Positions 6,516 through 7,890 of a DNA stretch of 10,891 nt are shown here, in pieces; positions within the stretch are counted from its first letter, which is position 1; every line of letters starts with the position of its first letter. The notes beneath the pieces were generated by a model. It had not been told where the DNA came from and made no database searches. It saw only the letters and a program-made list of their open reading frames with translations. Source of the stretch: Escherichia coli (GTDB taxonomy: Bacteria; Pseudomonadota; Gammaproteobacteria; Enterobacterales; Enterobacteriaceae); NCBI RefSeq assembly GCF_003334355.1, contig NZ_QOWP01000055.1; one strand, 5' to 3'. The position numbers and the translations under genes were made by a program.

Positions 6516-6980
6516 TTACTTTAAACACTGCTCGGTTATGTATTGCTGAGCACCTTCAAGTTGGGCCTGCATCATTACCAGTCGTTCCCGGAGGGTGAAA
6601 TAATCCCGTTCAGCGGTGTCTGCCAGTCGGGGGGAGGCTGCATTATCCACGCCGGAGGCGGTGGTGGCTTCACGCACTGACTGACAGACTGCTTTGATGT
6701 GCAACCGACGACGACCAGCGGCAACATCATCACGCAGAACATCATTTTCAGCTTTCGCATCAGCTAACTCCTTCGTGTATTTTGCATCGAGCGCAGCAAC
6801 ATCACGCTGACGCATCTGCATGTCAGTAATTGCCGCGTTCGCCAGCTTCAGTTCTCTGGCATTTTTGTCGCGCTGTTCTTTGTAGGCGATGGCGTTATCA
6901 CGGTAATGATTAACACCCCATGACAGGCAGACGACGATGCAGATAACCAGAGCGGAGATAATCGCGGTTACTCTGCTCAT
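6516..6980 (-). CDS. Rz: Spanin inner-membrane subunit (i-spanin), lambda Rz-like
   Basis: [31 protein letters not shown]... is nearly identical to lambda Rz as recalled; N-terminal TM segment; start overlaps the endolysin stop as ATGA. Confidence 0.9.
6575..6760 (-). CDS. Rz1: Spanin outer-membrane lipoprotein subunit (o-spanin), lambda Rz1-like, embedded in the +1 frame of Rz
   Basis: 61-aa ORF wholly inside Rz; lipobox LVVVGC then a Pro-rich tail ([27 protein letters not shown]), matching lambda Rz1 as recalled. Confidence 0.85.
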
Positions 6981-7453
6981 ACCTCAATCTCTCTGACCGT
7001 TCCGCCAGCTTCTTTGAATTTTGCAATCAGACTGTCAGCCTTATGCTCGAACTGACCATAACCAGCGCCCGGCAGTGAAGCCCATATATTGCTGCAACGG
7101 TCGATAGCCTGACGGATATCACCGCGATCAATCATCGGCAAAGCGCCACGCTCTTTAATCTGCTGCAGCGCTACAGCATCCTGACTTTCTGGAGAAAAAT
7201 CTTTCAGGCCAAGTTGCTTGCGGTAGGCATCCCACCAGCGTGAAAGAAGCTGGTAACGTCCAGCGGCTGTTGATATGAGTTTCGGATTTAGCGTGACAAG
7301 TTTGCGGGGGTGATCGGAGTAATCAGTGAACAGTTCGCCACCGACAATAACATCATAACCGTGATTTCTGGTTTTCTGCCGTCCGTTATCTGTTCCTTCT
7401 GACCATGCCACCATATCAAGGAAAGCTTTACGCTGGGAATTAAGTGTCTGCAT
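6977..7453 (-). CDS. R: Endolysin, lambda R-like lytic transglycosylase
   Basis: 158 aa; [45 protein letters not shown]... is near-identical to lambda R as recalled; AAGGAG RBS lies within the last holin codons. Confidence 0.92.
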
Positions 7454-7456
7454 TAA

Positions 7457-7798
7457 TTACTCCTTATGGGCACCGAACTTGTTACCGATGACCCTCATTG
7501 CCGCACCACGAATAGCATCAACACCAATCAGCCCCACCCCACCACCAATGGCAACAGAAAGTGATTTAGGCCATCCGACATACTCAAGCGCGGATGCAAA
7601 GGTCAGCGTCAGAGCACCACAAAGCAGAATCTCAAGCGTTTTTCGTTTCCAGCCGCCGCCACCGCCAAAATAGGCAATGCGCAAACCAGCCATAATAATT
7701 GACATAACCACTGCACCCAGCGGCGTATCTCCACGCCACCAACTTTGTAAGAGTTCCAGTAAGTCAGGCCAGGAATGAGGGGCATTGTGCATTTTCAT
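7457..7798 (-). CDS. Holin, three predicted TM segments (class I-like), with Met-Lys-Met dual-start motif
   Basis: Immediately upstream of the endolysin; TM-like stretches LGAVVMSIIMAGLRIAYF, TLEILLCGALTLTFASALEYVG and SLSVAIGGGVGLIGVDAI; GGAGGTGAGGCTT-ATG-AAA-ATG start context mirrors the lambda S antiholin/holin dual start. Start set at ATG 7798..7796 rather than the GTG at 7807. Not lambda S by sequence. Confidence 0.8.
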   Translation of the reverse strand: MKMHNAPHSWPDLLELLQSWWRGDTPLGAVVMSIIMAGLRIAYFGGGGGWKRKTLEILLCGALTLTFASALEYVGWPKSLSVAIGGGVGLIGVDAIRGAAMRVIGNKFGAHKE

Positions 7799-7890
7799 AA
7801 GCCTCACCTCCGAGAGTTCGGATGGTGCTAAGTGTAAGATTCAGGCTCTCAGGCTTGCTAACAAGAAGTCGAGGATGTTTCCGGAGCCTA

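Follow-up and report, generated by a model that had tools for sequence, protein, structure and literature searches.

A lambdoid lysis cassette of a Rac-family Escherichia coli prophage with a diverged lambda-family holin and a putative dual start

A contig of Escherichia coli (NZ_QOWP01000055.1) carries a holin gene followed by an endolysin gene R and the spanin genes Rz and Rz1. A sequence-only reading had described this cassette as a mosaic in which lambda-type R, Rz, and Rz1 are joined to a non-lambda holin keeping a Met-Lys-Met start. Is this holin foreign to lambda, where does the mosaic change its type, and does the holin gene have two functional starts? I analyzed the whole stretch of 10,891 nucleotides (hereafter the window), on whose minus strand all features of the cassette lie (Table 1). 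Each feature named in the sequence-only reading was found at the coordinates given there. The locus is quite probably the late-gene lysis cassette of a Rac-family lambdoid E. coli prophage with lambda-like dual-start timing. As such, the cassette is already known: it is a standard four-gene lambdoid lysis module of a common Rac-type prophage and is annotated in databases. Thus, its import beyond correct annotation is small, and the holin type itself has been published with SfV, SfII, and SfIV.

Table 1. Coordinates of the lysis cassette and its neighboring elements in the window.
Feature	Coordinates	Strand	Remarks
Q-type late antiterminator gene	9479..8937	minus	'antitermination protein Q' in ON470614; DUF1133 by PGAP
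Terminator-like hairpin	8856..8831	minus	Downstream of Q gene; fold prediction
Intrinsic-terminator-like hairpin and U-run	7922..7901	minus	About 100 nt upstream of holin gene; fold prediction
Predicted sdi-like hairpin	7827..7805	minus	CACC-A-UCCGA / loop ACUC / UCGGA-GGUG; fold prediction
Second SD-like GAGG	7802..7805	minus	Unpaired; 9 nt upstream of ATG3, 3 nt upstream of ATG1; sequence reading
Holin gene	7798..7457	minus	Lambda S family, SfV-type branch; ORF, 113 aa from ATG1
Predicted antiholin	from ATG1 (7798)	minus	113-aa product
Predicted holin	from ATG3 (7792)	minus	111-aa product
Endolysin gene R	7453..6977	minus	Lambda-type lytic transglycosylase; catalytic Glu19 conserved (AWSEGT motif)
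Rz	6980..6516	minus	Inner-membrane spanin subunit; N-terminal transmembrane segment, Cys99, Cys152
Rz1	6760..6575	minus	Outer-membrane lipoprotein spanin subunit; embedded in Rz, +1 frame

The holin matches the TIGR01594 (holin_lambda) profile at 139.3 bits, with residues 2-112 aligned to the full profile (positions 1-107 of 107), whose curated cut-off is 55.05 bits. It also matches PF05106 (Phage_holin_3_1) at 2.2e-27 over profile positions 2-99 of 99, a domain present in all of the homologues among the matches listed (at least 120), and its match in PHROGs is phrog_126 "holin/anti-holin". The RefSeq/PGAP name of the exact protein, WP_000781775.1, is 'phage holin, lambda family'. These matches, together with the published SfV/SfII/SfIV type, contradict the label "non-lambda". 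On the other hand, it is true that the sequence is strongly unlike that of lambda S: a BLASTP comparison with lambda (NC_001416) gave 28/111 identical residues (25%), colinear along the full length. The identity rises to 87-89% with the holins of the SfV/SfII/SfIV/mEp460 type (89% with SfV S). Judged from these comparisons, the holin, although diverged, is a genuine lambda S family protein of the SfV-type branch. The three hydrophobic segments and the GGGGG stretch after the first one were both found as the sequence-only reading had described them; by a crude Kyte-Doolittle hydropathy analysis the segments lie at about residues 26-46, 54-74, and 79-100, and the glycine run occupies residues 45-49, C-terminal to the first segment. 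The same analysis revealed a KRK cluster in the first loop and a basic C-terminus. The N-terminal tail, of about 25 residues, has a net negative charge and is about 15 residues longer than the short tail of lambda S.

The three downstream genes are of the lambda type, as had been stated. In BLASTP comparisons with the lambda proteins (NC_001416), R has 149/158 identical residues (94%), Rz has 141/152 (93%), and Rz1 has 55/57 (96%). R is 91% identical to SfV R and matches PDB 1AM7 (E 7e-101) and the endolysin family phrog_90 (1.9e-63), with no match to R in the Pfam and NCBIfam profile searches. Rz matches phrog_13 (9e-78), and Rz1 matches phrog_3198 (3.5e-29). As in lambda, the ATG of Rz overlaps the stop codon of R (ATGA) and Rz1 is embedded in Rz; the start of Rz1 is offset by 220 nt from that of Rz, which places Rz1 in the +1 frame. 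Rz1 has a VVGC lipobox with Cys20, another cysteine at position 29, and a proline-rich core. By all of these sequence features, Rz and Rz1 are a two-component embedded spanin. SfV (NC_003444) differs here, since its Rz and Rz1 are of another type with only 28% identity. The gene after Rz also differs from lambda; it is trkG in the window and bor in lambda.

Lambdoid phages are well known to shuffle their lysis genes. That the cassette is a mosaic was borne out, and the type was found to change inside R, not at a gene boundary. R is a hybrid whose nucleotides 1-330 are SfV-like and which is lambda-like from about 7121 on; informative sites place the switch from SfV-type to lambda-type sequence at about 7124-7121, and 28 lambda-type informative sites follow in one run from 7121 to 7012. 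The last 145 nt of R plus Rz/Rz1 are lambda-type and distinguish the window from SfV. The DNA identity to lambda stays at 97-100% until about 6608, inside Rz, and then drops. The boundary between the holin gene and R consists of a stop codon, a 3-nt spacer, and an ATG; the same layout occurs in SfV and it is no fresh joint. In contrast, S and R of lambda overlap by 17 nt.

Another joint had been suggested by a ribosome-binding site shared with the upstream gene. If so, a foreign, non-lambda holin would recently have come to lie before lambda R-Rz-Rz1, the joint being at or close to the holin ribosome-binding site and marked by the shared sequence. The repeat itself is real: the minus strand of the window has exactly two copies of GGAGGTGAG, at 7811..7803 before the holin gene and at 8724..8716 before an upstream 189-aa ORF. 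Moreover, in other prophages the sequence directly upstream of ATG1 is unrelated although the holin alleles are close, indicating that gene-boundary exchange does occur at the 5′ side of the holin gene. However, this 9-mer comprises 8/9 of the canonical complement of the 3′ end of 16S rRNA. Its spacing is unequal, 8 nt from the holin ATG1 and 4 nt from the ATG of the other gene, and the flanks have no similarity. By these features GGAGGTGAG is a near-consensus ribosome-binding site and no recombination scar, so the hint of a junction there falls away. A recent joint at this site is scarcely credible, because the holin belongs to the lambda family, SfV-like sequence runs on from the holin through the first 330 nt of R with the switch lying inside R, and close relatives almost always pair the holin with lambda-type R (what differs among them is the Rz type).

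What lies at the start of the holin gene? In lambda, sdi is the 5′ stem-loop of S occluding the Shine-Dalgarno (SD) sequence that serves Met1. The sequence-only reading had called for a search for an sdi-like stem-loop, and fold prediction placed one just upstream of the holin gene; its 3′ arm includes the SD GGAGG at 7811..7807. It resembles the lambda element in its position and in the G-rich SD of its 3′ arm, whereas its sequence is unrelated and its predicted fold is more stable (-12.6 versus -9.7 kcal/mol), with a z value of -3.1 to -3.4. The identical 9-mer SD of the neighboring gene lies outside any hairpin. An equivalent hairpin was predicted in all 16 of the 16 representative upstream sequences folded. 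The lysis cassettes of SfV, SfII, SfIV, and mEp460 also have the SD-sequestering hairpin.

The SD pairing probability was discarded as a test of this hairpin, since it does not discriminate: shuffled C-rich upstream sequence also pairs the SD in 70-84% (0.7-0.8). Plain MAFFT alignment of the upstream regions was likewise unsuitable for pair counts; the 5′ arms were mis-registered as loop lengths and bulges differ. A fold-energy shuffle test and pair counts on a model-based alignment were used in place of the pairing probability. Every sequence beat its own shuffles in the fold-energy test, and combining 11 hairpin types gives a p of about 1e-5, a value that is optimistic because the sequences are related. 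In 20 distinct sequences whose alignment was fitted to the model, 98.5% of the hairpin pair cells were paired, versus 26-62% with the partner slid. Double changes occurred at two pairs only in these 20 sequences, and 13 of 500 shuffles attained the observed score; the covariation is thin because the 3′ arm is the SD itself. A stem-loop downstream of the starts, as in lambda, had essentially no conserved counterpart in 13 sequences (RNAalifold, -0.05 kcal/mol), and no conservation in relatives was visible for an outer stem that the window allele is predicted to form (GAGCCU 7848..7843 paired with AGGCUU 7804..7799). The predicted fold suggests that the hairpin is an sdi-like element, which may work like lambda sdi in the control of start choice.

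Known dual-start holin/antiholin genes include lambda S107/S105, P22 gene 13, and phage 21 S. The Met-Lys-Met start of the holin was confirmed, as ATG-AAA-ATG at 7798..7790, and is another trait shared with lambda. A GTG at 7807, where the sequence-only reading let the cassette begin, was rejected as a holin start; it lies inside the SD and the hairpin and is out of frame in many relatives. By analogy with lambda, the unpaired GAGG would be the SD for Met3, both starts would be used, and Lys2 would confer the antiholin role. Alternatively, only one AUG may be functional, with no antiholin made and the hairpin merely throttling translation and so timing lysis. Several traits of the relatives speak for a single start. 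In SfV-type relatives, the first ATG is out of frame through a 2-nt insertion (ATGA[CG/TG]AAATG; ATGACGAAATG), which leaves one in-frame Met, and yet the hairpin is kept; in further relatives, Met1 is lost through a 1-nt deletion or ATA. The SfIV paper (PMC3851460) describes SfI, SfII, SfIV, and SfV as being without the dual-start motif. The long acidic N-terminal tail, unlike that of lambda, points the same way, as a single extra Lys may count for less in it. Nevertheless, a single start is rather unlikely for the window allele. Of the 114 homologues whose core is intact, 88 preserve M-[K/R]-M, across several genera and at identities as low as about 56%, and an Erwinia homologue has ATG-CGT-ATG (Met-Arg-Met), a Lys to Arg change which retains the positive charge. 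The window also has two SD-like elements properly spaced for the two AUGs. Dual starts have been experimentally established in the same family, in lambda and P22.

Because the hairpin persists in SfV-type relatives that have no in-frame Met1, the antiholin would be dispensable, and the hairpin may serve a purpose other than start choice. Their out-of-frame AUG1 may be a decoy start and not an antiholin source. It is possible, though doubtful, that the hairpin is conserved throughout the SfV-type holin branch as an element of translational control and sets the lysis clock alone. If true, such a hairpin-only clock would answer the open question of the SfIV paper on lysis timing in those phages. 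The genera covered by this branch-wide reading are Escherichia, Shigella, Salmonella, Klebsiella, Erwinia, Pantoea, and others.

The cassette lies in a Q-dependent late operon. The gene order on the minus strand is Q, the terminators, the holin gene directly upstream of R, and Rz/Rz1, where an insertion, the 189-aa accessory gene, separates Q from the holin gene; trkG and then a ParB-like gene follow. The terminator-like hairpin nearer the holin gene has a predicted energy of -16.4 kcal/mol, and none of 200 shuffles folded as well; SfV likewise has an annotated terminator just upstream of S. Scans of the window for Rfam families and tRNAs gave no matches. PADLOC found no defence system among the neighboring accessory proteins, its sole hit being an MTase_II-type match for the N-terminal domain of the ParB-like protein.

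With dual-start timing as the preferred reading, the cassette would act as follows. Late transcription would begin downstream of the Q gene and cross the two terminators and the accessory gene, the Q-modified polymerase presumably passing the hairpin nearer the holin gene. The two in-frame starts (Met1-Lys2-Met3) would give the antiholin and the holin, as in lambda. The predicted hairpin would bury the strong SD spaced for Met1, and the GAGG spaced for Met3 would stay unpaired; thus, most initiations are predicted to yield the holin. This putative three-transmembrane, class I holin of the SfV branch of the lambda S family would build up in the inner membrane and open holes at a programmed time, whereupon the cytoplasmic transglycosylase R could reach the cell wall. 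In the last step, the Rz/Rz1 spanin would disrupt the outer membrane.

How common is this cassette, and is it still alive? It was found at 80% coverage or more in 208 of 5,426 complete E. coli genomes, with the PGAP holin name 'phage holin, lambda family', and it is 99.8% identical in Rac-type prophages predicted by PHASTER. The vB_Eco records were not accepted as induced phages, since their source preprint shows PHASTER-predicted prophages. The Rac prophage of K-12 (rzpR pseudogene, rzoR, trkG, ynaK) has 99.75% DNA identity to the window over 6960..4530 and the same order of Rz/Rz1, trkG, and the ParB-like gene. It differs in that the holin gene, R, and the first 20 nt of Rz are lost. Based on this match, rzpR-rzoR-trkG of K-12 Rac is a remnant of the cassette, whose intact version, the ancestor form, is displayed in the window. 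The cassette in the window might similarly be inert cargo of a decaying cryptic prophage which has lost its lysis ability. Indeed, K-12 Rac keeps only rzpR, rzoR, and trkG of this region, in PSS-12, the genome with the best match, the prophage in question contains IS elements and pseudogenes, and the 'phage' records are PHASTER predictions with no isolated virions. Such decay is improbable for the window, where all four reading frames, the catalytic Glu19, the lipobox, and the spanin cysteines are intact, as are the Q, terminase, and portal genes; moreover, about 200 genomes carry the cassette at 99.8-100% conservation. Apart from the intact form of the K-12 remnant, the locus offers a recombination breakpoint with lambda-type sequence inside the endolysin gene. 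The holin branch appears to have its own version of the sdi hairpin, and its natural variants without the first start would be handy material on start choice and on mRNA structure versus lysis time.

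The interval 6516-7807 contains four genes of a Rac-type lambdoid lysis cassette, all on the minus strand (see the table). Compared with lambda (NC_001416), R, Rz and Rz1 are identical at 149 of 158 (94%), 141 of 152 (93%) and 55 of 57 (96%) residues, and the holin, which is colinear with lambda S end to end, at 28 of 111 (25%). R matches the lambda lysozyme structure 1AM7 (E 7e-101) and keeps the catalytic Glu19, Rz keeps the N-terminal membrane segment, Cys99 and Cys152, and Rz1 keeps the VVGC lipobox (Cys20) and Cys29. The holin has three hydrophobic segments by hydropathy, and its GGGGG stretch (residues 45-49) is followed by KRK. 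What the sequence-only reading had observed, namely R, Rz and an embedded Rz1 nearly identical to lambda next to a different holin with these segments, GGGGG and an ATG-AAA-ATG start, was correct in every particular. GTG 7807, a mechanical ORF start that had served as the end of the cassette, lies within the Shine-Dalgarno sequence (SD) and is out of frame in many relatives, and thus is not a start.

Features of the cassette and its neighbourhood in the window
Feature	Coordinates	Strand	Remarks
Holin ORF	7798..7457	-	ATG-AAA-ATG start at 7798..7790
Endolysin R	7453..6977	-	3-nt spacer after the holin TAA stop
Rz	6980..6516	-	ATGA overlap with the R stop codon
Rz1	6760..6575	-	entirely within Rz, +1 frame
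trkG, potassium transporter gene	4921..6378	-	directly after Rz; flanks to 6515
189-aa predicted membrane protein	8146..8715	-	between the Q terminator and the holin
Small antisense ORF	7962/8016..8177	+	between the 189-aa gene and the holin
Intrinsic-terminator-like hairpin	8831..8856	-	-16.1 kcal/mol; tR'-like, about 80 nt past the Q gene
Intrinsic-terminator-like hairpin	7901..7922	-	-16.4 kcal/mol; about 100 nt before the holin
263-aa ParB/Srx-like protein	3992..4783	-	PADLOC MTase_II match (1.5e-38) over the N-terminal 135 residues

Is this a non-lambda holin, as had been claimed? It scored 139.3 bits over the whole profile of TIGR01594 ("phage holin, lambda family", NCBIfam; curated cut-off 55.05) and matched Pfam PF05106 "Lysis protein S" (2e-27) and PHROG 126 "holin/anti-holin" (8.5e-39), while PF05106 was found in all 120 homologues listed from a large protein collection. 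Thus, the claim is wrong at the family level. The closest holins in phage records are SfV S (89% identity) and those of SfII, SfIV and mEp460 (87%), and the holin is of the known SfV type within the S family.

DNA similarity to lambda starts about 18 nt inside R (near 7435), ranges from 77 to 93% per 30-nt bin in the 5′ two-thirds of R, reaches 97-100% from about 7120 to 6608, drops over the last 90 nt of Rz and is gone past the Rz stop. Informative sites were compared across R of the window, lambda and SfV, which align over 477 nt without gaps. In R nt 1-330, the window mostly sides with SfV, with one short lambda-like patch at 7382-7364; from 7121 to 7012, 28 consecutive sites are lambda-like, as are 13 of the following 15. 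The Rz of SfV is of a different type (28% identical to the window Rz). The cassette thus consists of an SfV-type holin and 5′ R joined within R to a lambda-type 3′ R and Rz/Rz1. The cassette is a mosaic as proposed, with the joint inside R rather than where it had been placed.

That placement drew on a 9-mer shared with the upstream 189-aa gene. GGAGGTGAG does occur exactly twice (7811..7803 and 8724..8716). However, it covers 8/9 of the classic complement of the 16S rRNA 3′ end, its GGAGG lies 8 nt from the holin ATG1 but only 4 nt from the ATG of the other gene, and the flanks of the two copies are unrelated. Rather than a scar of recombination, the copies are two strong ribosome-binding sites. 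In other prophages, the sequence just before ATG1 of close holin alleles is unrelated, so exchange at the 5′ gene boundary does occur in the population; GGAGGTGAG is no evidence for it.

In the fetched loci remaining after exclusion of the lambda, vB_EcoS-666R9, PSS-12 and K-12 Rac reference records, a lambda-type R almost always follows holins of at least 90% identity. The Rz type is variable, the SfV type being the commonest and the lambda type occurring mainly where trkG is also present. The endolysins beside distant holin homologues are GH19, GH24, GH108 or an unclassified 136-aa protein. Such modular shuffling is well known from lambdoid lysis cassettes.

RNA folding near the holin start predicts a hairpin resembling sdi, the 5′ stem-loop of lambda S, directly upstream of the gene (CACC-A-UCCGA / ACUC / UCGGA-GGUG, 7827..7805), in which the whole GGAGG SD is paired. 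Its predicted energy is -12.6 kcal/mol versus -9.7 for the lambda CCCC/GGGG hairpin, and its 53-nt context beat 200 of 200 dinucleotide shuffles and its 61-nt context 199 of 200. The identical 9-mer of the neighbouring gene is unpaired in its own fold. The same architecture was found in 16 of 16 representative upstream sequences, including the SfV type and homologues of six other genera, with varying inner stems (UCCGA/UCGGA, CCG/CGG, CGC/GCG, CCC/GGG, UCCGU/ACGGA and a bulge-free CACUUCCG/CGGAGGUG). Standard pairs fill 98.5% of the pair cells in an alignment of 20 distinct sequences fitted to the covariance model, versus 26-62% with the partner slid. Double changes occur at two pairs, with a covariation score reached by 13 of 500 shuffles; the 3′ arm is the SD and so has little room to vary. 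Every sequence folds better than its upstream-shuffled versions (z -0.5 to -3.0; Fisher's combined p about 1e-5 over 11 types, the sequences being related by descent). The simpler measure of SD-pairing probability was uninformative, no conserved structure was found downstream of the holin starts, and no Rfam family matched. The minimum-energy fold of the window allele adds an outer stem, GAGCCU/AGGCUU (7843..7848 with 7799..7804, minus strand), which would bury a second SD-like GAGG as well, along with the sequence as far as AUG1, and which has no visible conservation in relatives.

Of 114 homologues whose core motif is intact, 88 start with M-[K/R]-M, a pattern seen at identities as low as about 56% and in Klebsiella, Salmonella, Citrobacter, Pantoea, Shimwellia and Izhakiella; an Erwinia homologue has ATG-CGT-ATG, whose Met-Arg-Met keeps the positive charge. 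Another 19 start with one Met only, at the place of Met3; these forms are derived. The SfV type (L003 2490..2510, which is SfV; L077, L079-L082) has ATGA[CG/TG]AAATG, where a 2-nt insertion puts the first ATG out of frame. L064 and L071 lost the in-frame first start by a 1-nt deletion in the A-run (ATGAAATG), and L061 has ATA in place of ATG1. An out-of-frame AUG near the SD is kept in the insertion and deletion variants, and the hairpin in all of them. According to the SfIV genome paper (PMC3851460), the dual start is missing from the holins of SfI, SfII, SfIV and SfV, and how these time lysis is not known. The window has the version retaining the dual start, and the alternative that only a single start is used is unlikely here.

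For the dual start, lambda offers a model: the extra N-terminal positive charge of the antiholin S107 changes its topology until the membrane de-energises (PMC3359269; PMC9636201). In the window, the distance from the buried GGAGG is 8 nt to AUG1 and 14 nt to AUG3; for an unpaired GAGG (7805..7802) it is 3 nt and 9 nt, respectively. Gene identities and conservation patterns are shown directly by the comparisons above; beyond them, I infer that ribosomes would load on the second element while the hairpin is closed, giving the 111-aa holin, and that opening would give a 113-aa antiholin. The lambda pathway would then follow, with hole formation, breakdown of the wall by cytoplasmic R and disruption of the outer membrane by Rz/Rz1. 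Bläsi et al. (1989) and Bläsi and Young (1996) reportedly also treat the charge and topology of S107. Since the hairpin is present in SfV-type phages that have no AUG1 in frame, it may chiefly set the translation rate. Overall, the earlier interpretation is supported in part, by a mosaic cassette, a conserved dual start and an sdi-like hairpin, and is wrong on the holin family and on where the junction lies and what shows it.

The cassette is known, annotated and widespread. The 1.8 kb at 8200..6400 match Rac-type prophages (vB_EcoS-666R9 and other deposited records) at 99.8% identity; these records were predicted with PHASTER in clinical isolates and do not represent isolated virions. The stretch occurs at a coverage of at least 80% in 208 of 5,426 complete E. 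coli genomes, where PGAP labels read "phage holin, lambda family", "glycoside hydrolase family 24 protein" and "lysis protein (rzpD)". Window 6960..4530, covering rzpR, rzoR, trkG and ynaK, is 99.75% identical to the K-12 cryptic prophage Rac, which keeps the region only as a stump, whereas the window has the intact form. Mild novelty lies only in the conservation of the SD-burying hairpin across the family and in the natural start-loss variants.

As for the neighbouring features, both terminator-like hairpins of the late transcript are strong and were matched by 0 of 200 shuffles, and SfV has an annotated terminator at the place of the one before the holin. trkG has a markedly low G+C (0.34-0.43 versus about 0.49 in the flanks) and has the appearance of an accessory gene that was inserted among the late genes of the phage, at the position of bor in lambda. 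The 189-aa gene (G+C about 0.40) occupies a classic slot for phage accessory genes and is missing from many prophages with the same holin; its product matches only phrog_11870 (unknown function), with no match in NCBIfam or PADLOC. The antisense ORF overlaps its 3′ end by 32 nt. PGAP annotates this ORF as a 71-aa hypothetical protein (WP_152948782.1), while the ATG at 8016, preceded by AAGAGG, would yield a 53-aa Pro/Lys/Gln-rich product; PADLOC gave no match. The 317-aa ORF (3067..4020) after the ParB/Srx-like gene had no match in PADLOC, the one family library searched with it. K-12 ynaK is a truncated copy of the ParB/Srx-like gene. At the window edge (10401..10800), upstream of a DUF1367-like gene, G+C falls sharply to 0.33.
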